From an uncultured Acidimicrobiaceae bacterium (lineage in GTDB: Bacteria; Actinomycetota; Acidimicrobiia; Acidimicrobiales; RAAP-2): DNA of 64,000 bases. The position numbers and the translations under genes are program-made. The stretch lies in the NCBI GenBank assembly GCA_963791015.1, contig CAWBQX010000006.1, positions 135,465 to 199,464 on the forward strand, written 5' to 3'. The notes beneath the pieces were generated by a model. It was not told the origin of the DNA. It saw only the letters and a list, made by a program, of their open reading frames with translations, and did no database searches. Below, one piece after another: positions 4,373-38,449 of the stretch; the stretch's first letter is position 1; the number at the start of each line of letters is the position of its first letter.

Positions 4373-5298
4373 GCGACGTCGCCCTTCGCCCCACGACGAC
4401 GACCAGCCCGGCGAAATCCCGGCGCCCGAGTTGGCTGCGTCGCCACAGCTCGCCCTATGCGCTCAGCCTGCTCGGCGGCGGGTGGATGCTGGCTTTCTTC
4501 CTTGTGCCTCTGGTCTCGGGGCTCATCGTGTCCCTGGAAACTGGCAATCCGATCTCGGGCTATCACCTCACGTGGAACTGGTCGATCTATAAGCAGCTCT
4601 TCGTTCACTCCGATATTCCCTACACCACGTTCTTTCTTCGATCGCTCTACTACGGTGCCGCCTCGACGGTCATCGCGATCCTCATCGCCTACCCGATGGC
4701 CTACTTCATCGCGTTTAAGGTGAGGGACCGCTGGAAGAGCCCGCTGCTGTTCTTAGTCCTGCTCTCGTTCTTTGTGTCCTTTGTCATCCGCATCGACATG
4801 TGGTCCTTTGTCCTCTCGAACCAGGGCATCGTCATCACGGCTCTGCGTGACATGCACCTGGTGTCCAAGGGTTTCCACATCCTGGGTACGTCGAACGCCG
4901 TGATCGGCGGGGACGTGTATAACAATCTCGCTTTCATGGTGCTGCCGATCTACGTGGCCCTCGAGCGCGTGGATGGGCGAATCCTTGAAGCGGCGCGGGA
5001 CCTGTACTCCAACGGGCGCCAGGTTTTCTTGCGCGTTGTGCTACCGCTCTCGCGCGCGGGCATCTTTGCGGGCATCCTCTTGGTGTTCATCACGACCGTC
5101 GGCGACCCGGTCGTCTCCTCACTGCTCGGCGGGGTCAACACGTACACCATCGGCCAAGCGATCCAGGACTCCTATCTCACGAACCAGCAGTTCAACGTGG
5201 CCGCCGCCCTGTCCACGGCGCTGATGGTGGTTCTCGGCATCATCATGTTCATCTACGCCCGAGTCTTTGGCACTCAGAACATCGAGAACTTGGTGTAG
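4369..5298 (+). CDS. ABC transporter permease (PotB-like)
   Basis: ATGA overlap with upstream stop; multi-TM protein with EAA-type loop (LEAARDLYSNGRQVFLRVVLP). Confidence 0.8.
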   Translation: MSDVALRPTTTTSPAKSRRPSWLRRHSSPYALSLLGGGWMLAFFLVPLVSGLIVSLETGNPISGYHLTWNWSIYKQLFVHSDIPYTTFFLRSLYYGAASTVIAILIAYPMAYFIAFKVRDRWKSPLLFLVLLSFFVSFVIRIDMWSFVLSNQGIVITALRDMHLVSKGFHILGTSNAVIGGDVYNNLAFMVLPIYVALERVDGRILEAARDLYSNGRQVFLRVVLPLSRAGIFAGILLVFITTVGDPVVSSLLGGVNTYTIGQAIQDSYLTNQQFNVAAALSTALMVVLGIIMFIYARVFGTQNIENLV

Positions 5299-6185
5299 TG
5301 ATGGCCACCAGAGAACGCGGATTCGATCGTCGCCAGCACAGCCCGTGGCTGGCGGGCTTTTACTGGCTGATTATTGCGATCACCTTCGTGCCGATCGTCG
5401 TGATGATCCTCTACAGCTTCAACGCCACGCCCACCAGTCGCATCACCTTTTCCTGGTACGGCTTTACGACCTACTGGTATCGCAACCTCACGCAAGTCGA
5501 CGGCCTGACCCACGCCTTCGTGACCTCCATCGAGGTCGCGATCATCTCCGCGTTGATCTCCGTCGCCATCGGCACCCCGCTGTCGATGGCGCTCGCGCGG
5601 TATCGATTCTGGCTCAAGGGGATCATCAGCTCCATGGTCTTTGCCGACATCGCTGCGCCCTCGATCGTGGTGGGCGCCGCCTCGCTCTCGTTCTTTCTCT
5701 CGATCAACCTCAACACCGGCCTGCTCACGATCCTCATCGCCCACATTGCCTTCAACGTGGCGTACGTGGTGGTCGTGGTCCAGGCGCGTCTCTCGGGTAT
5801 GGATACCTCGATTGAGGATGCGGCGCGCGACTTAGGGGCGGGGCCCTTCACCACTTTCACCCGCGTGACGCTGCCTCTGCTGTGGCCCGCGTTGTTAGCG
5901 GCGGGCCTCTTGACCTTTGCGATGTCAATCGATGACTACGTGATCACGAGCTTCGTAGCCGGATCGACTGTCACATTCCCGCTCTTCGTCTACGGTGCGG
6001 CGAAGGTTGGCCTACCGCCGCAGGTGCTGTGCTTTGGCACAATCATCTTCATCGTCGGCCTCGTGGTCGCGGTGGCCAACGGTCTGCTCAACCGCCGTCA
6101 CCTGGGCAAGCGCGCGGCCACCGAAGACGAGGTGGCGGACCTTCCACTGACCCCCGAGAGCGAGAAGGTTCTCGAAGTCGTTTAG
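5298..6185 (+). CDS. ABC transporter permease (PotC-like)
   Basis: Start overlaps previous stop; multi-TM protein; EAA loop IEDAARDLGAGPFTTFTRVTLPLL. Confidence 0.8.
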   Translation: MMATRERGFDRRQHSPWLAGFYWLIIAITFVPIVVMILYSFNATPTSRITFSWYGFTTYWYRNLTQVDGLTHAFVTSIEVAIISALISVAIGTPLSMALARYRFWLKGIISSMVFADIAAPSIVVGAASLSFFLSINLNTGLLTILIAHIAFNVAYVVVVVQARLSGMDTSIEDAARDLGAGPFTTFTRVTLPLLWPALLAAGLLTFAMSIDDYVITSFVAGSTVTFPLFVYGAAKVGLPPQVLCFGTIIFIVGLVVAVANGLLNRRHLGKRAATEDEVADLPLTPESEKVLEVV

Positions 6186-6961
6186 CTGGCGAGGCTGTAC
6201 ACGACTTCCACGTGAACGTTGATCGACTGGGACCCCGCCTGCACGGGCACTTTGTTGGTGCTCGCCGCACTTGCGAACTGGCTGAAGGGGTACACGATTC
6301 CAGTTGACGTGTTCTCTTGATCGATCACCTTCACGATGGCGACCACTGTGGTGCCGCCGCCCCGGGCGATCTGGGCCGCTTCGGTGTGGGCGTTACGGAT
6401 GGCCCGAGCCCGGGCCGCGGCGAGGTACTTCGACTGATTTGAGATCGAGAACGTAATGCCGCTCAGTTGGATGCCGTTGCCAACCGCCTTGGCCGCGGCG
6501 TCGATGGCGGACCCCACTTTGGCGATGTCGTGCGACGTGACGTTGAGGTCATCTTCGGCGGTGAAGTTGATAATGGTGCCGGCCGAGTTGGTGTTGTCGT
6601 AGATGTTGAGCCCCGACGTCTGGAGGTTCTTCTTCGTAATGCCGTTCTTGAGCAGCGTGGCTTCCAGGGCGGCCGTCTTCTGGTTGTTCTCGGCCAACGC
6701 CTCATTGGCGGTGAGGGCCGTCGTCGAGACACCGATCTGAAAGCTGACAGTGTTCGGCGTGCCGGTGACGGTGCCCGAACCGGTGACCGTAATGGTCGCG
6801 GCTCCCGAGGGCGAGCGCGAGTGACCGAGCGTCTCGCCGACGAAGGCGACGCCCGCGATCACGACGGCAAAGACGATGAGAAGCGTCATACGAAGTGTTG
6901 CTGATGCCCCACGAAAGGCGTGAAACGTATGGCTGTTGGTGTCCGGGTCGTGATCGCTCAC
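6182..6961 (-). CDS. SIMPL (DUF541) domain secreted/membrane-anchored protein
   Basis: N-terminal TM helix then a domain with FSISNQ...ARARAIRNAHTEAAQIA, typical of the SIMPL / 26 kDa periplasmic immunogenic protein family. Confidence 0.7.
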   Translation of the reverse strand: MSDHDPDTNSHTFHAFRGASATLRMTLLIVFAVVIAGVAFVGETLGHSRSPSGAATITVTGSGTVTGTPNTVSFQIGVSTTALTANEALAENNQKTAALEATLLKNGITKKNLQTSGLNIYDNTNSAGTIINFTAEDDLNVTSHDIAKVGSAIDAAAKAVGNGIQLSGITFSISNQSKYLAAARARAIRNAHTEAAQIARGGGTTVVAIVKVIDQENTSTGIVYPFSQFASAASTNKVPVQAGSQSINVHVEVVYSLAS

Positions 6962-7054: not shown

Positions 7055-8431
7055 CTAGGAACTTTTGTCGACAAGGGCGCGCACGATGTGCGTGAAGTCA
7101 GCCGAACGCTCTTCCCAGTTTCGATACAGGTCGAAACTGGGTGCAGCCGGCGAGAGCAACACGACGCCACCCTGGCTCAACGAGGCGCGCGCCAGATGCA
7201 CCGCCTCGTCCATGGAGGTCGCGGCGTGCTGGGTGACGTCGTGACAGTGCTGGGTCACGGCGTCGCTGATTCGCAGGCCCGCGTTCCCGATGGTGATGAG
7301 AGTCGTGTCGCGCTCTCGCGCGCACAGCGCGGCCGCGAGTTCTGAATAGTCCACCCCGCGGTCAAAGCCACCTGCGATGAGGGCAAGCGGTTCGTCGCGA
7401 AAGACGTCCAACGCCGCCAGGGTCGGTAACACCGAGGTGGCAAGTCCGTCGTCGACGTAGCGCACGGTCGTGCCGTCACTGCGCTCGTGAGCGACGAGCG
7501 TGAGGCGGCCCGAGAGCGGTTCGAACTCACTCGCGCGAACGCGTACGCGCTCGCGAAGCGCAGACTCGTCGGTGCCGGTGAGGATGGCGACCGCGGCGAG
7601 GGCGAGGGCCACGTTGGAGTCGTTGTGTTCGCCGATGAGCCCGAGCGCGCTCGCCAGGTGCGTCACGTCACTCGCGACGTAGATCAGTTCGCCACCGATC
7701 TCGCTTTCGTGTTCGTGCAGGGTCGGCGAATCGGCCACCAGGGTGCGGTGTACCCCCGCAGCGCGGGTGAGTGAGAGCTTGTCGCGGCGGTACTGCTCGA
7801 GTGAGCCGTGCCAGTCGATGTGGTCCTCGCCCAGTGACGTCACCACCACCACGCGCGGCGCCACATCCAGATCGACGATCTGGAAGCTGGAGACCTCGAG
7901 CACGAGCCAGCCACTCGACGTGTCGACCGCGGGATCGTAGGGCGCGCGACCGATGTTGCCCAGGCGCTGCGCCGTTTCGCCGAGGCAGGTGAGAAAGAAG
8001 GTGATCAGCGCAGTCGTCGTCGACTTGCCCTTGGTCCCGGTGATGGCGACGACGCGTTCCAGGTCGACGTCATGGAGCCAGAGGTTCAACGCGGACGTGA
8101 CGCTCACGCCGTAGTCCTCCAGTTCGAGGACGTCGGCACGGCGACGGGGAATACCCGGACTCTTCAGCACCACCTCGCACGTGAACAGTGCTTCGAGACC
8201 GCCGTGGTCGGTGACGAGCACGTCGTCGCCCAATCCCTCGACGTCGTCGACGATCACCAACTCGGCCGTGCCGCGTAGCAAGTCCACCGCGGCGCGACCT
8301 TCGATGCCGTAGCCGAAGATTCCGACGCGCCTCCCGGCGAGATCAGCGAAGCCAGTGGGCTGGAACACGATCCGTCCCTTGCGGTTCGAGGAGCTCGTCG
8401 AAGCTACGTGATGGTGAGGTGTCGCGGGCAA
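7055..8431 (-). CDS. Mur ligase, MurD paralogue (candidate MurD2, UDP-MurNAc-L-Ala:Glu ligase)
   Basis: Rossmann-like N-terminus VGIFGYGIEGRA, Mur ligase P-loop ITGTKGKSTTT, MurD-like length. Alternative GTG start at 8368. Overlaps the upstream gene; no dcw genes (mraY/ftsW) adjacent. Confidence 0.75.
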   Translation of the reverse strand: MPATPHHHVASTSSSNRKGRIVFQPTGFADLAGRRVGIFGYGIEGRAAVDLLRGTAELVIVDDVEGLGDDVLVTDHGGLEALFTCEVVLKSPGIPRRRADVLELEDYGVSVTSALNLWLHDVDLERVVAITGTKGKSTTTALITFFLTCLGETAQRLGNIGRAPYDPAVDTSSGWLVLEVSSFQIVDLDVAPRVVVVTSLGEDHIDWHGSLEQYRRDKLSLTRAAGVHRTLVADSPTLHEHESEIGGELIYVASDVTHLASALGLIGEHNDSNVALALAAVAILTGTDESALRERVRVRASEFEPLSGRLTLVAHERSDGTTVRYVDDGLATSVLPTLAALDVFRDEPLALIAGGFDRGVDYSELAAALCARERDTTLITIGNAGLRISDAVTQHCHDVTQHAATSMDEAVHLARASLSQGGVVLLSPAAPSFDLYRNWEERSADFTHIVRALVDKSS

Positions 8432-9656
8432 TCTCGACGAGTCGCGGCACGTCGCGCCACTCGTCCATGTGGCAGACCTTGCTCAAGGCGACCGCGCTCT
8501 CGTCGGGGTCGCCGACGCACTCGAAGGGTTTGGCCTCGGCGCCGAGTCCCACTAGTACGCGCAACTGTTCGTCGCGCGCGGTATCGCTCAGTGGTTCGTG
8601 GCCGAAGATCCCTCGCAACGTTCCGCGCGACATGTGCGGCGCCAGAACCAAGTTGATGAACAGACACTTATCGCACGTACCGCACCACGAGCTTTCGCGC
8701 TGGTCGACGCTCTGGCGAAAGGCCCGGTTGCAACTGCGAAAAACGTGATGATACGCGGGCAGTTGACTGAAGACCTGGGCGACCCAGATCTCGCTACGCG
8801 CGCGCAGGAAGCTCGCCACCGTGAGGTGATCGCCCAGTCGCTCGTTGAGCGCGTCGCCGATGAGGACTTCGGCGGCGAGGGACTTGCTCCACTGGTGATT
8901 GACTTCAAGGCCAGACCACTCAAGGTTGGGTATCGAGGCCGAGTGCTCGTTGCTCATTACCACGCCGCCGCGACCTGAGGCCACTGCCGCGATGGCGCAC
9001 AGCAAAGTGATCATCCCCGTCACCGGGACGTGGCCGTGGAAAAAGGAGTCCCCGCCGGTCAGGAGTTGGCTATCAAGGTGGCGGGTGGCGCGCACAATCG
9101 GTCGCCCGGTTTGAGCGGCGGTCGCTTCGAGCGGCGCGAAGCGACCAGTCGAGGGACTCACGATGAAGAGCGATGTGTCGAGGTCGGGAGAGAGCGACTC
9201 CACGGTCACCACCGAGTCAATGCCGCCGCCAAAAGGAACGAGGACGCGTTTTGTGTCGAGGCTAACCAGGGTCTCGGTGATCGGGCCACCCCCGTCGATC
9301 GTGACGTCATCTAGGGGCAGATCGTTGTGATAGGAGAACTCGCCGAGGCCGTCTCGCAGGGCCGCCTCCAGCAGGCGACGTCCGGCGACGCCGAGCGGTG
9401 TCGAGCCGACGTCGATGCGCCGGGCGGCGCCGGTCTTGTAGTACGAGAGACCCGCCAGGAGGAACCACAGTTCGGCCACCGAGCGAACGGCGGGCGTGTT
9501 CAGGGTGGCGACGCCTTCAAACTCCACCGTTTCGGTAAAGACTCGTCCGTCCATCTCGTAGGTGCCCTGCACCGTCGTCTCGTCAAGATCAAGTCCGACG
9601 TAGCGGAACAACTCGGCTCGCCGTGGAGTAATCGTCTCGCTCATCGCCGACCTCAT
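8343..9656 (-). CDS. MurL-like protein (candidate UDP-MurNAc-L-Ala-L-Glu epimerase); otherwise a conserved hypothetical PP-loop-like protein
   Basis: ATG at 9656 forms an ATGA overlap with the pgeF stop (alternative ATG 9644). FGGGIDS resembles the SGGxDS PP-loop; C-terminal CGTCDKC motif; coupled to the MurD paralogue. Family assignment is from memory and context only. Confidence 0.55.
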   Translation of the reverse strand: MRSAMSETITPRRAELFRYVGLDLDETTVQGTYEMDGRVFTETVEFEGVATLNTPAVRSVAELWFLLAGLSYYKTGAARRIDVGSTPLGVAGRRLLEAALRDGLGEFSYHNDLPLDDVTIDGGGPITETLVSLDTKRVLVPFGGGIDSVVTVESLSPDLDTSLFIVSPSTGRFAPLEATAAQTGRPIVRATRHLDSQLLTGGDSFFHGHVPVTGMITLLCAIAAVASGRGGVVMSNEHSASIPNLEWSGLEVNHQWSKSLAAEVLIGDALNERLGDHLTVASFLRARSEIWVAQVFSQLPAYHHVFRSCNRAFRQSVDQRESSWCGTCDKCLFINLVLAPHMSRGTLRGIFGHEPLSDTARDEQLRVLVGLGAEAKPFECVGDPDESAVALSKVCHMDEWRDVPRLVEIARDTSPSRSFDELLEPQGTDRVPAHWLR

Positions 9657-10417
9657 GCTACGGCTCGCTTCGCCACCACGGAGAAGCGTCCGCACGGTCG
9701 TTGTGCGCGATCGCTAAAGAACACCGCACCGCCGTCAGTGACCTCGCGGCTCAGCGCGATGCGGTCCTCCGCGACTCCGGCATCGATGAGTTGACGAGTG
9801 GCGACGAGGCGCAGATCAAGACGAGACCGATCCCCGCCATCGGCGAACACGGCGCCGTCAATATGGGCAAACGCCTCGGCGACCTCGGGACCAACCTGGT
9901 AGCTCTCCCTCGATATCGATGGCCCAATAAATACGTGGGCATCGGTCGGTGAGAGCTCGTCGAGTGTGCGCGCGATCACTCCGGCCGCCAGTCCGCGCCA
10001 GCCCGCGTGCACGACCGCGACCCTTCCGGACGACTCATCGGCGAGGACCAGGGGAACACAGTCCGCGACCAACATGGCGATCGCGAGTGAGGGGTCCCCG
10101 CTCACCAGGGCGTCGGCTTCGTCACCCGCCGACGCATGCTCGGCATCGAGAACGCGGTCGCCGTGCACTTGACGGACCGTGACGAAGCGGTCGAGCTCGA
10201 CGCCGGCGGCTCGGGCCACTCGCCAGCGGTTCTCACTCACGTGATCTGGTCGGTCGCCGACGTGTTCGCCGAGATTGAGCGAGTCGAAGGGTCCCGAACT
10301 GACGCCGCCAAAGCGGTCCGTGACGAACGCGTCGACACCGATCGCGGCGAGGTTCTGCGCGGGATAGACCGTGAGTGTCCCACGCTGCTCGGCGATGAGG
10401 ACTAGTTCTCGTGGCAC
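9653..10417 (-). CDS. pgeF: peptidoglycan editing factor / YfiH (DUF152) family protein
   Basis: FVTDRFGGVS...NLG, VADCVPLVL, VVHAGWRGL motifs of the YfiH/PgeF family. Confidence 0.8.
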   Translation of the reverse strand: MPRELVLIAEQRGTLTVYPAQNLAAIGVDAFVTDRFGGVSSGPFDSLNLGEHVGDRPDHVSENRWRVARAAGVELDRFVTVRQVHGDRVLDAEHASAGDEADALVSGDPSLAIAMLVADCVPLVLADESSGRVAVVHAGWRGLAAGVIARTLDELSPTDAHVFIGPSISRESYQVGPEVAEAFAHIDGAVFADGGDRSRLDLRLVATRQLIDAGVAEDRIALSREVTDGGAVFFSDRAQRPCGRFSVVAKRAVA

Positions 10418-10896
10418 GAGGCGCAGTGTCCAATCACGTCGAGGGCGTGCGAGGTTGCCCGGAAGCCCTGTTGCCGGGTCAGCTCATCCACCATTGCGCT
10501 CACGGTGCGTTCGAAGTCGCTCGTGGGCGTCACGTCGATAACCCGACCGCACAGCGAGCACAGCAGGTGGTGATGGTGGTGGGTGAGGTCTTCGGCGAGC
10601 TCGAAGCGCGCGAACTCGTCGTTGGCCGCGATGCGTCGTACGACGCCGGCCTCTTGGAGGTCCGACAAGTGTCGGTAGGCCGAGCTGCGTGGCACATCAG
10701 GAACCGCACGGGCGATGTCCGAGATGCTGAGGGGGCGGCCGCTGGTGGCGAGAAGTTCAACGACCGCTTGGCGACCCGCGGTGTAGCGCTGGTCGATGCG
10801 GCGCAGATGAACCTCCACCAGTTCGTGTAGCTCCGAGTGCGAGGCGTCGGCGGGGTGGTGTGATCCGCTAGCAAAGCTCACCGATGGTCCTTTCAC
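10402..10896 (-). CDS. zur: Fur-family metalloregulator, probably Zur
   Basis: Winged-helix N-domain, HHHHLLCSLCGRVIDV and C-terminal GHCASC metal sites; divergent from a metal ABC uptake operon across an AT-rich palindrome. Confidence 0.75.
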   Translation of the reverse strand: MKGPSVSFASGSHHPADASHSELHELVEVHLRRIDQRYTAGRQAVVELLATSGRPLSISDIARAVPDVPRSSAYRHLSDLQEAGVVRRIAANDEFARFELAEDLTHHHHHLLCSLCGRVIDVTPTSDFERTVSAMVDELTRQQGFRATSHALDVIGHCASCHEN

Positions 10897-10912
10897 GGGT
10901 TGTCTCAGTTGT

Positions 10913-10931
10913 AATGAGACTCATTCTCATT
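10913..10931. promoter_or_regulatory. putative Fur/Zur box (overlapping AT-rich palindromes)
   Basis: AATGAGACTCATT is a perfect 13-bp palindrome; AATGAGA-N5-TCTCATT overlaps it. It is the only AT-rich dyad in the 48-bp divergent intergenic region. Confidence 0.5.
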
Positions 10932-10944
10932 CTACGCTGACGCC

Positions 10945-11878
10945 ATGACTACTCGCTCATTGGCAAAAACTTCGCTGGCGGCAGGCGTGGTGGTGCTCAC
11001 CCTGATCGTCGCTTCACTCGCCGCACAACCTTCGGGGGCCAGTTCGTCCCACGTCATCGTGGCCATCGGCGCGGAGAACGAGTACGCCAACGTCTTGAGC
11101 CAGATCGGCGGGAAATATGTGTCGGTCTCGTCAATCTTGAACAACCCCAACACCGATCCCCACACCTTTGAAGCGAGCGCCAGCGTCGCCGAAGAGGTGG
11201 CCAGCGCGGATCTCATCGTGCAAAACGGCGTGGGCTACGACGGCTTCATGAACAACATCGAGGCCGCCTCGCCCAACTCGAAGCGCAAGGTCATCGTCGT
11301 TCAAGACGTCCTGGGCCTGCCCACTGACACGCCTAATCCGCACCTGTGGTACAAGCCCACGACCATGCCCGCGGTCGCCAAGGCGATGGTCAAGGCCCTC
11401 GACAAACTCGCCCCGAACCACGCGGCATACTTCAAGGCCAACCTCACGACGTTTGACGCGTCGCTCCAGCCGTGGCTCCAGGCGATCGCTTCGTTCAAGG
11501 CCAAGTACCCGAACACGCCCGGTTGCGGTCACCGAACCCGTCGCCGACTATCTTCTCCAGGCGATGGGCGCCAAGATTCTCACCCCCTTTGTTTTCCAGG
11601 CGGACATCATGAACGGCGTCGATCCCGCGCCGGAGGATGTCACGAAAGAAGATGGTTTCTTCACAAAGCACGAAGTCAAGCTCTTCTGCTACAACCAACA
11701 GGTCGTGGACTCGCTGACGACCTCGATTCGCCAAACGGCCCAGTCGGCCAACGTTCCGGTCGTGGGTGTGTACGAAACGATGCCCACCCCGGGATACGAC
11801 TATCAGACCTGGATGCTGGCCGAAGTCAAAGCGATTGAGGCCGCAGTAGCCTCGCACAAATCGACGGAGAAGCTATAA
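10945..11878 (+). pseudogene. metal ABC transporter substrate-binding protein (ZnuA/TroA type) with one +1 frameshift
   Basis: ORF 10945.. reads ..FKAKYPNTPG then nonsense. ORF 11453..11878 continues ..PVAVTEPVADYLLQAMGAKIL..VVGVYETMP. The frames join at about 11518-11522 in a CCCGG run. Confidence 0.8.
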
Positions 11879-11896
11879 GTAGCGCAGACCCCGTTC

Positions 11897-12696
11897 TTGA
11901 GGTTGAGCACGTCAAGCGTGTCCCTCGGCGGGCGCGCGGTCCTTGACGACGTCAGCTTTGAGGTGCGTCGCGGCGAGTTCACCGGACTCATCGGGTCTAA
12001 CGGCGTGGGCAAGACTACGCTCCTCCGCGCGATTCTGGGACTTCAGCGGCTGAACGGCGGCGAGATACGCGTCCTTGGCCAAGCGCGGACGAAGGGGAGC
12101 CATGCCCTCGGCTACGTCCCGCAGAAGGTCGTGCTCGATCCCGACGTGCCGCTACGCGCGCGCGACTTCGTCGCACTCGGTCTTGACGCCCATCACGTCG
12201 GCTTCTCGCGGCGAACGCCCGACCAACGCGAGCGGGTCGAGCAGATTCTCACGGACGTGGACGCCCTGCGATTTGCGAACAGTCGCGTGGGCAGTCTCTC
12301 GGGCGGCGAGCAACAGCGCGTCTTGATCGCTCACGCCCTCGTCAGTGAGCCCGCGTTGCTGGTGCTCGACGAGCCGCTGGCGAACTTGGACCCCAAGAGC
12401 GTCCAGGAGATCGTCGTCGTTGCTCCACCGCGTGGTCGAGCGATCACCACGTCGCCGTGCTGCTGTCGGCGCACGAGATGAATGCCCTCTTGCCCGTCAT
12501 GGATCGAATTGTCTATCTCACGAACGGTCGCGCGGCCAGTGGCACCACCGATGAAGTCGTTCGTTCGGACGTCTTAAGCGCGTTGTACGGACAGCACGTG
12601 GACGTTCTCAAGCTGCACGGGCGCGTGCTGGTGGTGACCGAACCGGGTCAAGATGACGCGCAGATCCCGGAGCACTCGACGTTGACCGTCAACTAG
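11897..12696 (+). pseudogene. metal ABC transporter ATP-binding protein (ZnuC type) with two +1 frameshifts
   Basis: Walker A GSNGVGKTT, LSGGEQQRV, LLVLDEP in frame 1. LLHRVVERS lies in a second frame and HHVAVLLSAHEMNALLPVMDRIVYL in a third. Junctions at about 12412-12421 and 12438-12443. Confidence 0.8.
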
Positions 12697-12698
12697 TC

Positions 12699-13591
12699 GT
12701 GCACTTCATCTTCGAGCCCGGTTTCTTTTCGAGTAGCCCGGTGCACGTCGCCCTCGTCGTGGGCGCGGTCAGCGCAATCGTGTCGGCGATCGTCGGGGTC
12801 TTTACCGTCATGCGCGGTCAGTCCTTCGCCGGCCACGCCTTGACCGACGTGGCCACGACCGGCGGTTCGGGGGCGTTCTTCTATGGCGCGAGCCCACTGG
12901 TGGGGTTTTTGAGTGCCGGGCGTGATCGGGGCCGGCGCCATGGAACTCGTGGGCGTGGAGCGCCTGCGCGGTCGTGACATCGCCACGGGCGTCGTGCTGG
13001 GATTCGCCACCGGGACTGTCTGCGCTGTTCTTGTACCTCGACACGACAAGAGTGCGGCAACCGGCGTGAGCCAGCAGATTCTCTTCGGATCCATCTTCAC
13101 TCTCAGTTCCTCGACCATCCCGTTCGTGGCGGTCCTGAGCGCACTTACCTTGTGCGTTCTGTTCGTCATCTATCGGCCATTGCTGCTGAGCTCGGTGAGC
13201 CCTGATCTCGCGGCCGCTCGCGGCATTCGCGTTCGGCTCATTGGCGTGCTCTTCATGCTCGCTCTGGCTATTGCGGTGGGCCTGTCGTCGATCGCGATCG
13301 GCTCGATCCTCTCGACCGCCCTGCTGATCGGTCCCGCCGCTGCGGCTCTTCGCGTGACGACCAACCTGCGCGCCACTTTGGTGGTGGCCGCACTCTGGGG
13401 CGTGGTGGCGACGTGGCTGGGTATCACTCTCGCCTACGACAGCTACTACTGGTTTCCTTCGAGCCAGGGACTGCCGGTCAGCTTCTTCATCGTGGCCTTG
13501 GTGTTCCTCGGATACCTGCTCTCCGGCGTACCCACACGGCGCCGGCAGCACGAGTTCTCGAACCTCGCTGGTTGTGGAGGGGGTTCGCTGA
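12699..13591 (+). pseudogene. metal ABC transporter permease 1 (ZnuB/TroC type) with +1 frameshift; 3' boundary unclear
   Basis: ORF 12699.. (FTVMRGQSFAGHALTDV..) switches to the frame of ORF 12913.. (VIGAGAMELVGV..ILFGSIF..LLIGPAAAA) at about 12917-12921. No in-frame stop before the next permease start at 13591. Confidence 0.7.
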
Positions 13592-14440
13592 TGTTCTCGA
13601 GCTTCATGGTGAACGCGTGGATCATCGGATCGGTCGTCGCCGCCGTGGCCGGGGTCGTCGGGTTCTTCGTCGTGATGCGCGGCTCGGCCTTCGCCGCGCA
13701 CGCCATCCCCAACGGTGCCTTTGCCGGGGCGGCGGGGGCGAATCTGATCGCCGTCAATCCGCTCATTGGACTCGGGGTCTTTTCGTTCGTCGCGGCACTC
13801 GGCATCGCCACGTTGTCGCGGCGCGGACGAGCCGATGCCGTCACCGCCCTCGCGCTCATGATGATGCTGGCATTGGGTGCGGCGTTCATCAGCCAGAGCA
13901 CGGAGTACGAACCGGCAATCTTCTCGTTGCTCTTTGGCGAGATCCTGGGCGTCAGCACGAGTCAACTCTGGCCGGTGATCGGCCTGGGCGTGGTGTGCGT
14001 CGGCGCGGTGGCGTTCTTCTACCGACCGTCTGCTGATGTCGTCGATCGCCCCGGAGATCGCGGCCGCCCAAGGACTGAAGCCGGAGCGACTGGAACTCAT
14101 CTTCCTGGTGATCCTGGCCTGTGCCACCACCATGACGGTGCCGGTCGTGGGCGCGTTGTTGATCTTCACGTTGATGATCGGACCTCCTGCGGCGGCGCGG
14201 TCCTTCAGCGATCGTGCACTCGTTGCCATGGCGCTGTCGGTGGTGCTCGCCCTGGTCACCATTTGGGGTGCGCTGGCGTGTTCGTTCACGACGAACTGGC
14301 CCGTGGGATTCTGGGTCGGATCGTTCAGCGCGGCCTGGTTCATCGCGGGACGACTCTTCGCATCGTGGCGTCGCGTCCGTTCTCGATCGCACACGCGCGC
14401 CGCCTCGCGCGGCGACGTACCCGTGATGGTGGGTGCGTAG
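13591..14440 (+). pseudogene. metal ABC transporter permease 2 (ZnuB/TroD type) with +1 frameshift
   Basis: MFSSFMVNAWIIG..VVMRGSAFAAHAIPNG..LFGEILGV..FFYRP, then a switch at about 14027-14030 to the frame of ORF 14036..14440 (LLMSSIAPEIAAAQGL..LIFTLMIGPPAAA). Confidence 0.7.
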
Positions 14441-14449
14441 CCTAAGGGC

Positions 14450-15928: not shown

Positions 15929-16511
15929 GTGGTCGACCAGCCAAGGGTGCAGGAACTGATTCGTCAGTTACTGGCGGCGATCGGCGACGACCCCGAGCGC
16001 GAAGGACTCCTCGAGACGCCGCGTCGGGTGGCCGAGATGTACGCCGAACTCTTCAAGGGGGTCGAGAAGGACCCGGGCGAGCACCTGCGCGTCGGCTTTG
16101 AGATCGGTCACGACGAGATGGTCATGGTGCGCGACATTCCTTTCACCTCGCTGTGCGAGCACCACCTCGTGCCCTTCGTCGGCGTGGCCCACGTGGCCTA
16201 CTTGCCGGGCGACAGTGGCCGCATCACCGGCCTGTCGAAACTCGGCGCGCGTCGTCGAGGGCTACGCGAGACGCCTGCAAGTTCAAGAGCGCATGACGAC
16301 CGAGATCGTTGAGACGATCGAACGCGAACTGCAGCCTCGAGGTTCAATCGTCGTCATTGAGGCCGAGCACTTCTGCATGTCGATGCGTGGGGTGAAGAAG
16401 GACGGGATGACCACGGTCACCTCGGCCGTGCGAGGGATCTTCCGCGACGACGCCAAGACCCGTGCGGAGGCCTTGCAGTACATCCACCAACGAAGGTCGA
16501 CGTGGCGCTGA
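15929..16511 (+). pseudogene. folE: GTP cyclohydrolase I (FolE type IA) interrupted by a single +1 frameshift (or sequence error)
   Basis: ORF 15929.. gives ..[31 protein letters not shown] 16098..16511 gives [32 protein letters not shown]. The frames join at about 16243-16245 (CTC-G-GCG). Confidence 0.8.
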
Positions 16512-33721: not shown

Positions 33722-35594
33722 GTGACGTCGAAGCGAAGCGTTGAAGGACGGCCCAATTACCTTTCGATCGCGCTACTTGTTTTATTCGTTGTTATGGGTG
33801 GCTCGCTCTATTCGACGTCGGCGTTCGCGCAGAGTGCCTTTCATACAGTCACGTTCGCGGAGAATGACAGCGTTTCTGATCCGGTGTACACAACGCAGAC
33901 CGCGAACGCGGCAACGGACTTGACCGCATTCGCTGACTTAAGCCCAAGCTTCTCCAACCCTGGAATGGTTTTCGACTACTGGAATACCGAAGCGAACGGT
34001 TCCGGAACCAGTTATAGCGACCGGCAACTTTATGATTTCGCCGCGCCTCTCACGCTCTTCGCCATCTGGGGCGGGCCCGAAGTGACGGTGACATTCGCAG
34101 AGAACGACAATGTCAGTGACCCAAAAGTGGCTACTCAGACGGAAAATGTCTCCAAGATTGCTGACCCAGTTCGCATACCTGAGTCCAAGTTTCTCCGATA
34201 CTGGCTACACGTTCGCCGGTTGGAACACTCAGGCCAACGGCAGTGGCGCCTCCTATGCGGACGGGGCCACATACGACTTCTCGAGTCCACTAGTCCTCTA
34301 TGCGCAATGGACAGCAGTACCAAGTGACCACACCGTCACGTTTGCGGAAAATGACAGCGGAACTGACGCCACCATGTCCACGCAAACCGAAAGCTCGCCA
34401 ACCGCTCTTACCTCGTTTGCGAATATAAGTCCGGCGTTTTCCAACACTGGCTACATGTTCGATGACTGGAACACAGCGGCAAACGGGAGTGGCATCTCCT
34501 ACGCAAACGATGCCACTTACGGCTTCTCGGCACCAGTCGTTCTTTACGCGCAGTGGACTGCGAACGCGAGCGTCACTGCAGCGTTCTCGAACAACGGGGG
34601 TTCTGGATCCGTTTCATCTCTCCAGGACCCTTCTGGAACCACGATCTCTCTCCCTCCTCCTGGCGATCTGAGTCGCATCGACTTCACACTGACCGGTTGG
34701 AATACCTTGGCCAACGGAAATGGAACCGAGTACGCGCCGAGCGCGACTGTGGTGCTGACTTCGAATGAAACCTTTTACGCCCAATGGACTGAGACATCTC
34801 CGATCGAAATCGAATTCTTAACCAACGGCGGTTCGGGAACTGACGCCCCGATCAGCGGCGAATTCGGTTCGACTGAGACCTTGCCCGGCGTTGCTGGGCT
34901 CACGTATAACGGCTACACGCTCACGTCGTGGAATACGTTGGCCAATGGCACGGGAACGTCGTACCCGCTCGATGCGGTCATCTCGTTGTCCACTCCGCTG
35001 ACCCTCTACGCGCAATGGACGACGGCGACCGGATCAATCATGATCTCGCTATCAGCAAACGGTGGCAGCGGATCGTTGAGCGCTCTGTCGGGTGCTTCGG
35101 GTTCAACTGTCACTTTGCCCGGCTCGACGAGCGTGGTGCGCGCGGGTTACACGCTGACGTCGTGGAATTCGGCCGCCAACGGATCAGGTACTTCGTATTC
35201 GCCGGGTCAAACCTTCACCCTCACGTCAACCTTTACCCTTTATGCGCAGTGGAAGAAGGTAGCCACGTCGCAGTTGTACGGCGCCGTGGGCACTTTTAGC
35301 GCCCGCACCGTCGCTCTCACGACCGGCATCGAGAGGGAGATCCGAACTCTCGCGACAGCCGTCAAGACCAGGGGATACACCAAGGTTTCGCTTTTTGGCT
35401 ATAGCGCGGCCACGGGTAATCAGTCCTTGAATAAATCGCTCAGCACGTTGCGCGCTGAACGGGTGGCCACGTATTTGCGAAGTGAGCTGCACGCTCTCAA
35501 ACTCTCCGGCGTCACGATCGCGGTGTCGGGCGAAGGATCGGTCAACGACAGCACGAAATCGGCGTATTCGCGCGTGGAAGTCTTCGTCAGCTAG
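33722..35594 (+). pseudogene. secreted repeat protein (Listeria-Bacteroides / Flg_new-type repeats) with C-terminal OmpA-like domain; one +1 frameshift
   Basis: Signal/TM sequence, then about 8-9 units of 70-75 aa ending ..F.GWNT.ANG.GT.Y......L.....LYAQW. C-terminus GYSAATGNQSLNKSLSTLRAERVA..SRVEVFV is OmpA_C-like. Frames of ORFs 33722.. and 34110.. join at about 34145-34149. Confidence 0.7.
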
Positions 35595-35612
35595 ACGTCT
35601 TTTTCACGAGTT

Positions 35613-35629
35613 GGACCTCAGAGCCGGTG
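35613..35629. repeat. left copy of 15-17 bp direct repeat (target-site duplication) GGACCTCAGAGCCGGTG
   Basis: Identical 17-mer recurs at 37031..37047, immediately flanking the IS element. Confidence 0.8.
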
Positions 35630-35686
35630 TAAGACTCCGGGAGAATCTTGACTAAATAGTGTCAGGAGTTGCTTGACACATTTCTG

Positions 35687-36916
35687 TTATTGATTCTGCC
35701 GCTTGCGGTGCGGTTCTGCTCGCTTCTTTCTCACCTCCTTCGTATTGGTCCTCGGAATGGACTTGATGAGCTCGGCGCCGTCCCAGACCTGGAGCAGGGT
35801 CGGTAGCACCCGCACGTCGACCAGGTGGCCGCTGCGCATCTTGCCGACGCTGAACATCTGATTCGCGATCGAGATCACCCCGTTGATCGAGACGGTGCGA
35901 CTCACCCAGTCGTCACCACTGCGATCCTCGTTGAAGGTGTGCAGATCGAGGGGCGGTGTCGGAACCTTCGAGCGGGCGCCGTAGAAGCGCTCGGCGGGGG
36001 TGGCCATCTTCAGACTCTGGTGGGGTCGGCGCAGGTTGTAGTCCTCGATCCACTCGTCGAGCTCGCCTTGGGCCCGTTCCAGGGACGAAAACGTGCGGTC
36101 CATCAGAAACTCGTGGCGCAGGGTGCGGTGGAATCGCTCGATCTTGCCCGTCGTCGTGGGATGGCCCGGTGCCGTCAAGCGATGCACGATGCCATTGTCA
36201 CGACAGATCCGGTCAAAGAGCACTTCACTCGGCGTGAGCCCGAAGCGATTGGTGAAGACCTTGCCATTATCAGTCAGTATCTCTTCGGGCACGCCGTGCT
36301 TTTCGAGTGCGGCCGCAAAGTGCCCGCAGACCTGGCGAGCGATTGCTCGGGTCATGATGCCCGCGCACACAATGAAGCGTGAGTAGTCGTCGATGCCGTC
36401 GATGATCTTGCACTCGGTGCCGTCGTCGAGCAGCAGCCCGCCGACGACGTCCATCTGCCACAGTTCCATAGCTCTTCCTCTTTCCCATCGTTTGTAAGTT
36501 GGTAGCTTTTTGCGCTTCGCGCGCTCTTCAATGAGCCCACTTCGCACCAGTGCGCGATAGATCGCCGACAGCGACGGCAGCGGTTCGAGGTGTTCTCGTT
36601 CCAGCTGGTGGCGGATGTGCATCTGTCCCCAGCTCGGGTGATGACGGCGCAACTCCAGCACGCGGGCTTCGGCTGTGGCCGGCATCTGAGTGGGTGACAC
36701 GCGGGGACGATGTGACTGCTCGGCCAGTGCCTCGAGTCCGCCCTCTTCGTATCGTTTGAGCCAAAGATGGACCGCCTGGCGGCTCACGCCGAACTTTTGG
36801 GCCACTTCGGTGACGCTGAAACCGTCTCTCAAGACGCCTAAGACGGCGTCATAACGTTGTTCCATTTTGCTTGACTCCCACAGCATTGGGGCCACCTCCT
36901 GCTCAGGAAAGAGCAA
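35687..36916 (-). CDS. IS481-family transposase (HTH plus rve integrase core)
   Basis: HTH VTEVAQKFGVSRQAVHLWLKRY; catalytic-core motifs WQMDV, IDDYSR, LTDNGKVF, TTGKIERFHRTL, YNLRRPHQSL. More likely start is ATG 36865 (MEQRYDAV). Confidence 0.85.
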   Translation of the reverse strand: MLFPEQEVAPMLWESSKMEQRYDAVLGVLRDGFSVTEVAQKFGVSRQAVHLWLKRYEEGGLEALAEQSHRPRVSPTQMPATAEARVLELRRHHPSWGQMHIRHQLEREHLEPLPSLSAIYRALVRSGLIEERAKRKKLPTYKRWERGRAMELWQMDVVGGLLLDDGTECKIIDGIDDYSRFIVCAGIMTRAIARQVCGHFAAALEKHGVPEEILTDNGKVFTNRFGLTPSEVLFDRICRDNGIVHRLTAPGHPTTTGKIERFHRTLRHEFLMDRTFSSLERAQGELDEWIEDYNLRRPHQSLKMATPAERFYGARSKVPTPPLDLHTFNEDRSGDDWVSRTVSINGVISIANQMFSVGKMRSGHLVDVRVLPTLLQVWDGAELIKSIPRTNTKEVRKKRAEPHRKRQNQ

Positions 36917-36947
36917 AGGACAGTGGCGGCTTAGGTGTCAAGCAACT

Positions 36948-37030
36948 CCCGAAACTGTGTCAAGGATCAGCCGGAGTTGTGTAAAGCATCACCCGAAACT
37001 GTTTCGACAAGGATCAGTCGGATGTTTACA
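36948..37030. repeat. tandem duplication (2 units of about 44 bp) of the IS right-terminal repeat unit
   Basis: CCCGAAACTGTGTCAAGGATCAGCCGGAGTTGTGTAAAGCATCA followed by CCCGAAACTGTTTCGACAAGGATCAGTCGGATGTTTACA, about 80 percent identical by eye. Confidence 0.7.
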
Positions 37031-37047
37031 GGACCTCAGAGCCGGTG
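37031..37047. repeat. right copy of the direct repeat; overlaps the 3' end of tRNA-Thr(TGT)
   Basis: Same 17-mer as 35613..35629. Positions 37040-37047 are the discriminator plus the last 7 nt of the tRNA acceptor stem (minus strand). Confidence 0.8.
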
Positions 37048-37111
37048 GAGGGATTCGAACCCACGACCTGACGATTACAAATCGCCTGCGCTACCACTGC
37101 GCCACACCGGC
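37040..37111 (-). tRNA. tRNA-Thr (anticodon TGT), no encoded CCA
   Basis: Reverse complement folds: acceptor GCCGGTG/CACCGGC, D stem GCGC/GCGC, anticodon stem GGCGA/TCGTC with loop TTTGTAA, T loop TTCGAAT. The T stem GTGGG/CCCTC has one U-U mismatch. Confidence 0.8.
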
Positions 37112-37155
37112 GTTAGAGCATCCAGGTTAGTGAACAAGTCCCAATCGTCGTAGAG

Positions 37156-37671
37156 TTGGACGCAATGAGCGGCGAAACAACATCTTCACGGGATGGTCAC
37201 GTCTCGGGATCTCACTACCAGCCACCGCTGCCGGTCGTTCTCATCATCGTTTTGCTCTTCGTCGGAGGTACGTTCCTGATGGTGAGGGCCGTGTCGCCTG
37301 CGTCGAGTTCCTCGACCACTACGACGACAACTCTGACCACGACGACGACAACGCCCCCGTCGACGCGCGTCATCAAGTCGCGTGTTCGTGTTCAGGTCGC
37401 GAATGGTACCAACGTGACCGCGCTAGCCGCCACGTACACCCAACGCCTCATGACGCAAGACTGGGACACGTTGCCACCGGCCAACGGACCGTCCGAAGCG
37501 AAGACAGTCATCTACTACCGAGCGGGCCAAGTGGCAGCGGCTCGTGAGATCGCCACTGAAATCGGCGTGAGTCAATCGTCGCTGCGCCCGTTGGGACATC
37601 TCACGTCAGTGGCGGGCGCGCAGGGTGACGACGTGGTCGTCATTCTCGGCAACAACTCCGCGCCGAAGTAA
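37156..37671 (+). CDS. LytR_C (LytR cell-envelope-related C-terminal) domain membrane protein
   Basis: TM helix, Ser/Thr-rich linker, then VRVQVANGTNV.ALAA...L......V......NG......TVIYY......AAREIA..IG...VVVILGNN. Confidence 0.7.
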   Translation: MDAMSGETTSSRDGHVSGSHYQPPLPVVLIIVLLFVGGTFLMVRAVSPASSSSTTTTTTLTTTTTTPPSTRVIKSRVRVQVANGTNVTALAATYTQRLMTQDWDTLPPANGPSEAKTVIYYRAGQVAAAREIATEIGVSQSSLRPLGHLTSVAGAQGDDVVVILGNNSAPK

Positions 37672-37672
37672 C

Positions 37673-38449
37673 TCACTTCGTCGACGGTAAGTCGACCTTG
37701 TAGCGCTCAAGCGCAGCGCGCAACACATCGACCGCCATCGGTCGCAACTCTTCGAGCGGTCGATTCCGATGGCGTCGAATACCGAGGTCGACTTGAGCAA
37801 GTGCGTGTACGCCAAAGAGTCGCGCCGCGTCGATGAGCAGCGCGATCTCCACGCGGTAGTCGGGCTCGAGGTCGATCGTCTCGAGCACCCCGCGGCGCAG
37901 TGCCGTCTCTCCCGCGAGGGGCTGGCGAATCTCGCCCAAACCGGGGAATAACAAGGAAAGTACGGGTCGGGCCGTGAGTTCATTGACCCGTCCGCCGCCC
38001 GTGGGCATGTTGTGAAGCGGACGTTCGTAGAAGCCTTTCACCAGTTGTGTCGCGGGTCGTTCGAGGAGGGGCTGAATGAGTCGCGCGACGTAGTCGGGTG
38101 TTGTGTTGGTGACGTCCGCGTCAAGGAACACGATGAGCTCGGCATCGCTCGCCGCAAATCCTGCGGACATCGCTGCGCCCTTCCCACTTCGTCCCCGCAG
38201 GTGAACAACGCGCGCGCCGTGGTGTTCGGCGACGGTTGCGGTGTCGTCGCTCGAGTGATCGTTGACGACAATGAGTTCGTCGATGAGGTGGTCATGAATC
38301 TGAACGCTGTCGAGCACGGTGCCCACCGTGGTCGCCTCGTCTTTGGCCGGCACGATGACCGCGACGCTCGTGGCGCCCTTGAGCGCGCTGACGCGTTCGA
38401 GGCTGTAGCTGTCTCGTGCGAGAGTCCAAGGGACGTCGGCGCTGGCCAT
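37673..38449 (-). CDS. glucosyl-3-phosphoglycerate synthase-like glycosyltransferase (GT81/GT2)
   Basis: VAVIVPAKDEATTVG, GKGAAM, VFLDADV, GGGRVNELTARP, QPLAGETALRR and EIALLID motifs as in mycobacterial GpgS. Confidence 0.7.
   Translation of the reverse strand: MASADVPWTLARDSYSLERVSALKGATSVAVIVPAKDEATTVGTVLDSVQIHDHLIDELIVVNDHSSDDTATVAEHHGARVVHLRGRSGKGAAMSAGFAASDAELIVFLDADVTNTTPDYVARLIQPLLERPATQLVKGFYERPLHNMPTGGGRVNELTARPVLSLLFPGLGEIRQPLAGETALRRGVLETIDLEPDYRVEIALLIDAARLFGVHALAQVDLGIRRHRNRPLEELRPMAVDVLRAALERYKVDLPSTK

Follow-up and report, generated by a model that had tools for sequence, protein, structure and literature searches.

A predicted regulator-pgeF-murL-murD2 operon for peptidoglycan precursor synthesis in an Acidimicrobiales-type actinobacterium

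We have analysed a stretch of 64,000 nucleotides (nt) from an uncultured Acidimicrobiaceae bacterium (contig CAWBQX010000006.1, positions 135,465 to 199,464; hereafter the window). Four open reading frames (ORFs) lie in tandem on its minus strand at 7055-10896 and encode, in order, a Fur-family regulator, the peptidoglycan editing factor PgeF, a 450-amino acid (aa) homologue of the epimerase MurL, and a MurD-type ligase. We consider it likely that these genes constitute a single operon, regulator-pgeF-murL-murD2, through which this Acidimicrobiales-type actinobacterium follows the known MurD2/MurL route for the second-residue step of its peptidoglycan precursor. Homology establishes the identities of the genes, and the overlaps between them, the conservation of their arrangement, and the fold of MurL are documented below.

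Apart from glutamate racemase, MurD2 and MurL represent the only route known to supply the D-Glu of the cell wall, and the MurD2/MurL route is being pursued as a narrow-spectrum antibiotic target. The two enzymes were discovered in Xanthomonas oryzae (XOO_1320/XOO_1319), and in vitro work has confirmed their activities for Micromonospora sp. and for Salinispora tropica (Feng et al. 2017; PMC8788868). Their published distribution covers Xanthomonadales relatives, a few Alphaproteobacteria, and the Micromonosporaceae (PMC8788868). The pathway is already known, including in some actinobacteria (PMC8788868), and Acidimicrobiales homologues have already been labelled MurL and MurD2 by JGI; the Acidimicrobiales-type lineage is missing from the published distribution list. 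Like the X. oryzae locus, the window has murL followed directly by the gene for a MurD-type ligase, MurL homology over the full length of the protein, and a location outside any dcw cluster. In contrast to X. oryzae, the window genes lie within an overlapping four-gene operon together with pgeF and a Fur-family regulator gene, and the window MurL is just ~33-37% identical to the proteins of the Xanthomonadales-type loci retrieved. The four-gene arrangement is missing from the proteobacterial and most other actinobacterial loci examined, and in the literature searched we found no description of a conserved regulator-pgeF-murL-murD2 operon with overlaps.

The regulator gene, for a putative Zur, occupies 10402..10881 (159 aa), pgeF of the YfiH/YlmD family 9653..10417 (254 aa), murL 8343..9644 (433 aa), and the putative murD2 gene 7055..8368 (437 aa), all on the minus strand. 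A preceding reading made from the sequence alone (hereafter the sequence-only reading) had described four same-strand genes with touching or overlapping frames, and all four ORFs and their junctions are confirmed here, with refined starts. The regulator stop codon (TAG, 10404-10402) lies inside pgeF, whose GTG start at 10417 creates a 16-nt overlap. The longest regulator ORF begins at 10896, and GTG 10881 is probably the true start, given the AAAGGA located 6 nt upstream. At the second junction, the pgeF stop (TGA, 9655-9653) and an ATG at 9656-9654 form an ATGA overlap. An alternative murL start, ATG 9644, has a better Shine-Dalgarno sequence (GAGG, 6-nt spacer), is the start picked by gene callers in relatives, and gives the 433-aa protein with an 8-nt gap to pgeF. 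At the third junction, the murL stop (TGA, 8345-8343) lies within a 26-nt overlap with a ligase gene that starts at GTG 8368, or an 89-nt overlap if the longest ligase ORF, from TTG 8431, is used. GTG 8368 is the likely start because it is preceded at 6 nt by AAGGGA, yields 437 aa, and is called in relatives as well.

Stop-start junctions of 16, 0-8, and 26 nt imply both co-transcription and translational coupling. Identical 16-nt and 26-nt overlaps recur in the related loci L001 and L002, which indicates that they are not due to chance, and overlaps are repeated across L001-L004. Furthermore, a Fur-family gene ends ~16-25 nt inside pgeF in all 17 of the 17 loci that have upstream sequence and a MurL at least 57% identical. 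Scans for terminators, promoters, and Rfam elements over 5.5-12 kb produced nothing beyond chance, with no convincing terminator-like hairpin, sigma-70 consensus, or Rfam element inside the gene block. Thus, the sequences strongly suggest that the regulator gene is co-transcribed with pgeF-murL-murD2 in this clade.

The sequence-only reading had called the 450-aa protein MurL-like, and it proves to be a homologue over its full length: residues 26-447 align with positions 5-438 of the 447 in the NCBIfam MurL model NF041275, with an expectation (E) value of 3.5e-79. A database protein that is 100% identical to the window MurL (P0001) carries the Pfam domains PF26299 (MurL_N) and PF26298 (MurL_epimerase_C), and many close homologues are named 'UDP-N-acetyl-alpha-D-muramoyl-L-alanyl-L-glutamate epimerase' by JGI. 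Our own Pfam scan of the 450-aa ORF returned no family, though the precomputed annotations list PF26298 and PF26299. An exact look-up of this ORF also gave no match because gene callers use the 433-aa start. The nearest MurL and ligase homologues (65-94% identity) are from metagenome-assembled Acidimicrobiales genomes.

The MurL family is large, with 2153 clusters at 50% identity giving a match (E <= 0.001). In all 84 of the 84 loci from Actinomycetota and Proteobacteria, murL adjoins a ligase gene, and in other lineages the two occur as MurL-MurD2 fusion proteins of 819-898 aa (P0261, P0300, P0350, P0359, and P0378). Some other family members (P0299, P0254, and P0344) carry N-terminal extensions of 100-190 aa that have no Pfam match. 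Three MurL homologues (P0402, P0420, and P0469), one of them attributed to a Gemmatimonadota metagenome-assembled genome, are labelled 'endonuclease domain-containing protein' by NCBI, which looks like a misannotation.

The motifs quoted in the sequence-only reading are present in the window: FGGGIDS (9213-9233) and WCGTCDKC (8664-8687) in MurL, and GTKGKSTT (8015-8038) in the ligase. To place the MurL motifs within the family, we use an alignment of 40 diverse MurL proteins (A1), in which the window protein is row 1, its numbering is followed, and 34 columns are invariant. In the PP-loop-like motif (9213..9233, minus strand; family consensus GGGxDS), G139, G140, G141, and S144 show no variation, and the conservation of D143 is 90% or higher. 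H205 and the triplet N249-H250-Q251 are also invariant, as are five cysteines: C305, C321, C324, C327, and C376. The first four of these form a cluster encoded at 8664..8735 on the minus strand, made up of C305 (SCN, 8727-8735) and W320-C321-x2-C324-x-K326-C327 (8664-8687), and C376 (ECVG) is encoded at 8511..8522 on the same strand.

An AlphaFold2 model of MurL built on this alignment (predicted local distance difference test 95.4, predicted template modeling score 0.94) has as its top Foldseek matches QatC (E 1.6e-5), QueC (E 2.8e-5; template modeling (TM) score 0.64 on the target), and Cap9 (E 2e-3). Further matches include TtuA, MnmA, ArtA, LarE, argininosuccinate synthetase (ArgG), and NAD synthetase (NadE), and all are PP-loop ATP pyrophosphatases. 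In addition, the GGGkDS of the MurL family profile aligns with the PP-loop SGGKDS of TtuA (E 0.0095). The PP-loop-like character that had been assigned to FGGGIDS is therefore borne out by both the fold matches and the profile alignment. A search of the PDB with the MurL sequence found no match, so that the fold search alone was informative there. The best structural matches, QueC (2pg3), QatC (9y01), and Cap9 (9nto), share with MurL the PP-loop motif and a C-x(n)-C-x2-C-x2-C cluster. However, their identity to MurL is just 13-16%, their TM scores on the query are 0.35-0.43, and we claim no family membership at the sequence level. MurL also differs from these proteins in having an extra N-terminal beta domain and C-terminal helices, and its product is an epimer rather than a nitrile or a conjugate. 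We found no description of the QueC-like PP-loop/Cys-cluster nature of MurL in the literature searched, nor any paper there that combines QueC-like with epimerase and peptidoglycan.

QueC, which converts ATP to AMP as it activates a carboxylate by way of an acyl-adenylate, contains a Cys4 zinc site with C...C-x2-C-x2-C spacing. The spacing in MurL, C-x15-C-x2-C-x2-C (C305, C321, C324, and C327), is QueC-like, and by this analogy the invariant cluster probably binds zinc. The sequence-only reading had taken the cysteines both as a hint of a zinc site and as a rationale for the linkage to a Zur-type regulator. A zinc site is indeed plausible, but the cluster alone does not explain the linkage because it is invariant across the MurL family, including loci where no Zur is nearby.

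Reviews state that no conserved domain already known occurs in MurL and that its mechanism is unclear beyond a stoichiometric conversion of ATP to AMP and a one-way conversion of L to D (PMC8788868; PMC5808125). An AMP-forming, unidirectional reaction of this kind (PMC8788868; PMC5808125) fits carboxylate adenylation. If the enzymology of Xanthomonas, Micromonospora, and Salinispora extends to the window protein, then MurL would adenylate the alpha-carboxylate of the terminal Glu at the cost of ATP to AMP and would invert this residue to D-Glu. This chemistry would take place on a QueC-like PP-loop ATP-pyrophosphatase fold that carries the invariant and probably zinc-binding cluster. Adenylation would be followed by deprotonation/reprotonation and hydrolysis, and C376 or H205 is a candidate for the acid/base residue. 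The best-supported mechanism for MurL is thus one in which the PP loop mediates adenylation of the alpha-carboxylate of Glu on a scaffold that is probably stabilised by zinc.

The ligase exceeds the TIGR01087 murD model cut-off (255 bits against 212), contains the Mur_ligase_M and Mur_ligase_C domains, and matches solved MurD structures with E values of 5e-35 to 3e-24. We compared its pocket residues with those of the solved Escherichia coli MurD and of 77 murL-adjacent ligases. In E. coli MurD, K319 lies in DSKATN and K348 in GGDGKS (PDB alignment). As in the comparison made for MurD2, the equivalent of K319 is replaced by a hydrophobic residue, here L309 (DDGLATS versus NDSKATN); Leu or Ile occupies this position in 76 of the 77 MurL-linked ligases, and the review gives no X. 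oryzae residue for it. The equivalent of K348 is Arg (GGFDRG versus GGDGKS), matching X. oryzae R358 and 76 of the 77. Within the segment SPAAPSFD (SPACASLD in E. coli), A414 is replaced by Pro and L416 by Phe, which match X. oryzae P433 and F435, respectively; among the MurL-linked ligases, Pro is found 68 times at the first position and Phe or Tyr 75 times at the second. Some canonical MurD proteins also carry Arg at the K348 position, so this residue is not diagnostic alone (PMC8788868). Because the four changes together (K319 to L, K348 to R, A414 to P, and L416 to F) match the signature of the MurL-linked ligases, the window protein belongs with these rather than with DSKATN-type MurD, with an Asp at the position of E. 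coli D182 as a caveat. The sequence-only reading had suggested a MurD2-like enzyme, and the residue signature agrees with this in departing from canonical MurD at the D-Glu pocket. Relatives of the ligase that are 77% identical are named L-glutamate ligase by JGI, and we infer that the window enzyme is specific for L-Glu.

PgeF scores 149.5 bits against a cut-off of 141.15 with TIGR00726 and matches Pfam Cu-oxidase_4 with an E value of 6.5e-61. Its His-Cys-His triad aligns with that of E. coli YfiH (codons at 10160-10171, 10052-10066, and 9992-10012). PgeF is a cytoplasmic amidase that takes off Ser or Gly attached by MurC in error, and its best substrates are UDP-MurNAc-monopeptides (Garde et al. 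2025, PMC12280929). The window protein scores above the equivalog cut-off and has the conserved triad, and it is expected to act on UDP-MurNAc-monopeptides, as do the characterised PgeF/YfiH/YlmD proteins (PMC12280929). As a His-Cys-His amidase, it would remove the UDP-MurNAc-Ser and UDP-MurNAc-Gly made in error by MurC and would thereby rid the ligase, whose gene is the second one downstream, of wrong compounds in its substrate pool. Indeed, the preferred monopeptide substrates of PgeF (PMC12280929) are the substrate pool of MurD and MurD2, which supports a link between pgeF and the ligase step. In E. coli, no contact between PgeF and either MurC or MurD was detected, and the main text of that study does not contain the terms 'operon' and 'genomic context' (PMC12280929).

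In contrast to the PgeF/YfiH/YlmD system of that study, pgeF in the window lies directly upstream of murL-murD2 and overlaps a metalloregulator gene, and in some relatives PgeF and MurL are apparently fused. We surveyed the position of pgeF in 80 species-level loci that were found with a MurL profile. In 40 loci, the gene directly precedes murL and shares its strand; it is elsewhere in the locus in 6 and absent in 29, and the remaining 5 have too little upstream sequence to place it. All 40 directly upstream cases are from Acidimicrobiia or from unclassified metagenome-assembled genomes of Actinomycetota. Among the 80, this placement is seen in none of the loci from Proteobacteria, Geodermatophilaceae, Frankiaceae, Microbacteriaceae, Nocardioides, or Solirubrobacterales. 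Thus, the coupling of pgeF to murL and the ligase gene proposed by the sequence-only reading is real and conserved, both in these 40 loci and in the overlaps seen in relatives. The literature searched contains no paper that mentions both MurL and PgeF. Three gene calls fuse PgeF with MurL, of which L086 alone has intact neighbours. A 697-aa ORF in L007 was rejected as a fusion of this type, as the murL frame is merely open across pgeF.

The regulator contains the Pfam FUR domain (PF01475, E 6e-17) along with HHHHH and CxxC...CxxC motifs, and its C108, C111, C153, and C156 are invariant in our alignment of regulators (A2). Features in common with the actinobacterial Zur proteins of Streptomyces coelicolor (3mwm) and Mycobacterium tuberculosis (FurB, 2o03) are the Fur-family fold, the HHHH-L-x-C-x2-C segment, and the C-terminal CxxC. 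The regulators of the 17 loci with the conserved pgeF overlap fall into two Fur subfamilies that are 22-28% identical to each other. The shorter subfamily, found in a sister clade (124-133 aa, YRRC...HHHHLxCRxCG), matches S. coelicolor Zur with an E value of 5e-35, M. tuberculosis Zur with 8e-33, and Fur with 4e-13. The gene at the regulator position in the sister clade is clearly an actinobacterial Zur, and the window regulator is most likely zinc-sensing.

On the other side of the regulator, genes for a znuA-znuC-znuB-znuB metal ABC importer (10945..14445, plus strand; Pfam ZnuA) are divergently oriented. Between the regulator and znuA starts, an inverted repeat at 10913..10931 has exact 7-nt arms and an N5 spacer (AATGAGA-N5-TCTCATT, core ATGAGAATGAGTCTCAT). 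This Fur/Zur-type putative operator is the single site of its kind in the 64-kb window, where 0.10 matches are expected by chance. A palindromic AT-rich operator beside a ZnuA-family importer is a feature in common with actinobacterial Zur systems that have znuABC divergent or adjacent, and the window site resembles a Zur box of the actinobacterial consensus TGAAAATGATTTTCA. It differs in its G/C-richer core (ATGAGAnTGAGTCTCAT). The regulator is the first gene of the operon, the site lies in the divergent region of 48-63 bp that is shared with znuABC, and the znu importer is presumed to be its primary target. The core is kept upstream of the regulator in L001, L002, L006, L016, and L019. In L001, a relative at 83% identity, znuA and the regulator gene are separated by an inserted gene for a 611-aa alpha/beta-hydrolase, and the operator is present twice (6760-6774 and 8713-8727), with one copy before znuA and one before the regulator.

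The sister clade (L007, L010, L011, L012, L014, L017, L025, and L053) has instead two tandem boxes, (T/C)AGAA(T/C)(C/G)ATTCCAG, for example TGGAATCATTCCA, that are ~12 bp apart, lie between a ZnuA-like gene and the zur gene, and differ from the window box. The transporter adjacent to the locus in relatives is of the ZnuA type or, in L013, a ZIP permease; there, the ZIP transporter gene, zur, and pgeF lie on one strand with a box that resembles that of the window. The sequence-only reading had placed a Zur-type regulator and its box at the head of the operon. The position, the palindrome, and the sister-clade Zur uphold that part, whereas the window protein itself is ambiguous by sequence. In the more distant Acidimicrobiia/Actinomycetota group, namely in L018 and L022 (both ~4560-5090) and in L086 (4508-4978), a MerR-family gene takes the place of the Fur-family gene directly before pgeF-murL-murD2.

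Several findings weigh against the reading of this locus as a regulator-headed operon for the MurD2/MurL route. MurL scores 266 bits and falls far short of the equivalog cut-off of 700 set for NF041275. Because this model was built for Xanthomonadales, the low score reflects divergence and does not exclude orthology. The ligase has Asp (GEDH) at the position of E. coli D182, where X. oryzae MurD2 has Glu197; among the 77 MurL-linked ligases this residue is Asp in 58 and Glu in 18. Strict specificity for L-Glu is not assured because the E197D change alters the stereospecificity of X. oryzae MurD2 (PMC8788868). Perhaps, then, the ligase is a normal or dual-specificity MurD that adds D-Glu, with MurL serving as a salvage enzyme and the locus not being the sole D-Glu route, as could be argued from an Asp shared with canonical MurD and from the match to the murD model TIGR01087. 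We regard this as quite improbable given the MurL-linked signature at the four other pocket positions and given that the K319T change alone lets E. coli MurD accept L-Glu (PMC8788868). In addition, the ligase adjoins or is fused with MurL everywhere examined, and MurL acts only on the L-Glu product, its sole known substrate being the product of MurD2 (PMC8788868; PMC5808125). No murI, second murD, dcw genes, or D-amino-acid transaminase gene lies within the 64-kb window.

With regard to PgeF, two of the three fused gene calls are on contigs where the ligase gene is frameshifted, and these may be assembly artefacts. The presence of pgeF immediately before murL in half of the surveyed loci, together with the fused calls, might be taken to mean that PgeF has a pathway-specific job here other than the editing of Ser and Gly, and the E. 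coli enzyme, when present at high concentration, cleaves di- and tripeptide precursors as well (PMC12280929). It is improbable that the window protein has been recruited in this way, however, because it passes the equivalog model, keeps the triad, and shows nothing that points to a changed substrate. Moreover, other Gram-positive bacteria have the homologue ylmD within their dcw cluster, which makes a location beside wall genes ordinary for the family.

The regulator and the importer raise a further difficulty. By sequence, the window regulator is not clearly Zur as opposed to Fur or PerR: among solved relatives it matches Fur at 5e-12, PerR at 1e-11, and M. tuberculosis Zur at just 2e-9. It is a divergent 159-aa form without the YRRC cysteine of actinobacterial Zur, and no NCBIfam model reaches its cut-off. 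Likewise, the best NCBIfam match of the importer binding protein is the zinc-binding AztC, below cut-off, and the AztC (Zn) and MntC (Mn) models score similarly. These observations would be accommodated if the regulator responded to another metal or signal, such as Fe, Mn, Ni, or peroxide, with Mn or Fe rather than Zn as the metal taken up by the ABC importer. We consider this unlikely, as the gene at the corresponding position of the sister clade clearly encodes a Zur, a ZIP transporter occupies the same place in L013, and the window operator resembles a Zur box of the actinobacterial consensus, with the sister clade carrying its own box twice.

Another difficulty concerns what the operator controls. 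In more distant Acidimicrobiia, whose MurL is ~43% identical, pgeF is directly preceded by a MerR gene, with the Fur-family gene located 1.4-3 kb upstream, which fits decaying synteny, and most MurL loci are without a Fur-family neighbour. It would also be odd for plentiful zinc to repress an essential wall pathway, and internal promoters may exist. Because MurD2 and MurL would be essential, full repression of the wall genes under zinc-replete conditions is implausible. Furthermore, the main text of a review of Zur regulons lists autoregulated zur genes and does not use the word 'peptidoglycan' (PMC6103462). It is a real possibility, if somewhat short of an even one, that the linkage of regulator to pgeF is inherited gene order without regulatory meaning, that the operator controls znuABC only, and that expression of the wall genes is constitutive, arising either by read-through from a weak promoter of the regulator gene or from a promoter within the operon. 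What argues otherwise is that 17 loci, with regulators from two Fur subfamilies as dissimilar as those described above, retain the overlap of ~16 nt between regulator and pgeF. In addition, L001 keeps an operator copy before the regulator despite its separation from znuA, and there is no terminator or clear promoter between regulator and pgeF.

A bolder proposal is that in Acidimicrobiales a promoter under the control of Zur drives transcription for the whole D-Glu step: proofreading by PgeF, ligation of L-Glu by MurD2, and epimerisation by a QueC-like MurL that contains zinc. The supply of wall precursor would thus be tuned to zinc, with PgeF and MurL acting as a physical unit, as the fused genes of some relatives suggest. 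If this were true, then two zinc enzymes, for example, would be raised when zinc is scarce. We view this proposal as possible yet doubtful. The operator may modulate the wall genes besides znuABC, and if it does, we would expect autoregulation of a partial kind, in which scarcity of zinc leads to more Zur, PgeF, and MurL, rather than on/off control of an essential pathway. We favour mild autoregulation or inherited gene order as the explanation for the presence of the regulator at the head of the operon.

Across the region, the genes are ordered holB, ABC transporter, SIMPL, ligase, murL, pgeF, regulator, znuABC, tilS, hpt, folE, folP, folB, folK, panC, and coaX, and this order is syntenic in relatives. 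The surroundings are not a dcw cluster, in agreement with the sequence-only reading that the ligase gene is away from dcw neighbours. Downstream of the ligase gene by 93 nt is a SIMPL/DUF541 (YggE-like) gene at 6182..6961 on the minus strand (Pfam SIMPL, E 8e-39). It has its own Shine-Dalgarno sequence and is kept at this place in L001-L003, L005, L006, and L016. The 93-nt gap folds no better than shuffled sequence and contains no terminator-like hairpin, and it is possible that the SIMPL gene is the last gene of the transcript.

Compared with their intact orthologues from L001 and L002, znuA, znuC, both znuB genes, and folE carry one frameshift each (10945-14445; 15929-16508). Those in the znu genes are single-base insertions near 11522, 12416, 12917, and 14028, and the shift in folE is near 16245; none lies in a long homopolymer. 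The regulator, pgeF, murL, murD2, tilS, hpt, folP, folB, and folK genes are intact. The frameshifts could be assembly errors, or the zinc importer and an enzyme dependent on zinc could be undergoing real decay. When the window 'ZnuA' ORF was compared with relatives by tblastn, its second segments were set aside as alternative-frame matches that result from the frameshift in the window itself. Farther away, the window has a patch of lower GC content at 34000-38000 (0.58-0.60 versus ~0.64 elsewhere) that contains a List_Bact_rpt/OmpA surface protein gene (34110-35594) and an rve-family insertion sequence transposase gene (35687-36916, minus strand) and is probably a mobile insertion.

If functional, a wall operon headed by Zur would constitute a regulatory link from metal to cell wall, of which we found none in the literature searched. 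The conserved order pgeF-murL-murD2, with its occasional fusion, ties proofreading to the second-residue step, a link that was sought and not found in E. coli (PMC12280929). The published list covers far less than the MurL family found here, and the family is apparently widespread among the Acidimicrobiia-type loci recovered, which represent a major lineage of soil and water with few cultured members. For the family as a whole, a QueC-like fold with an invariant cysteine cluster offers a concrete and testable mechanism for MurL.

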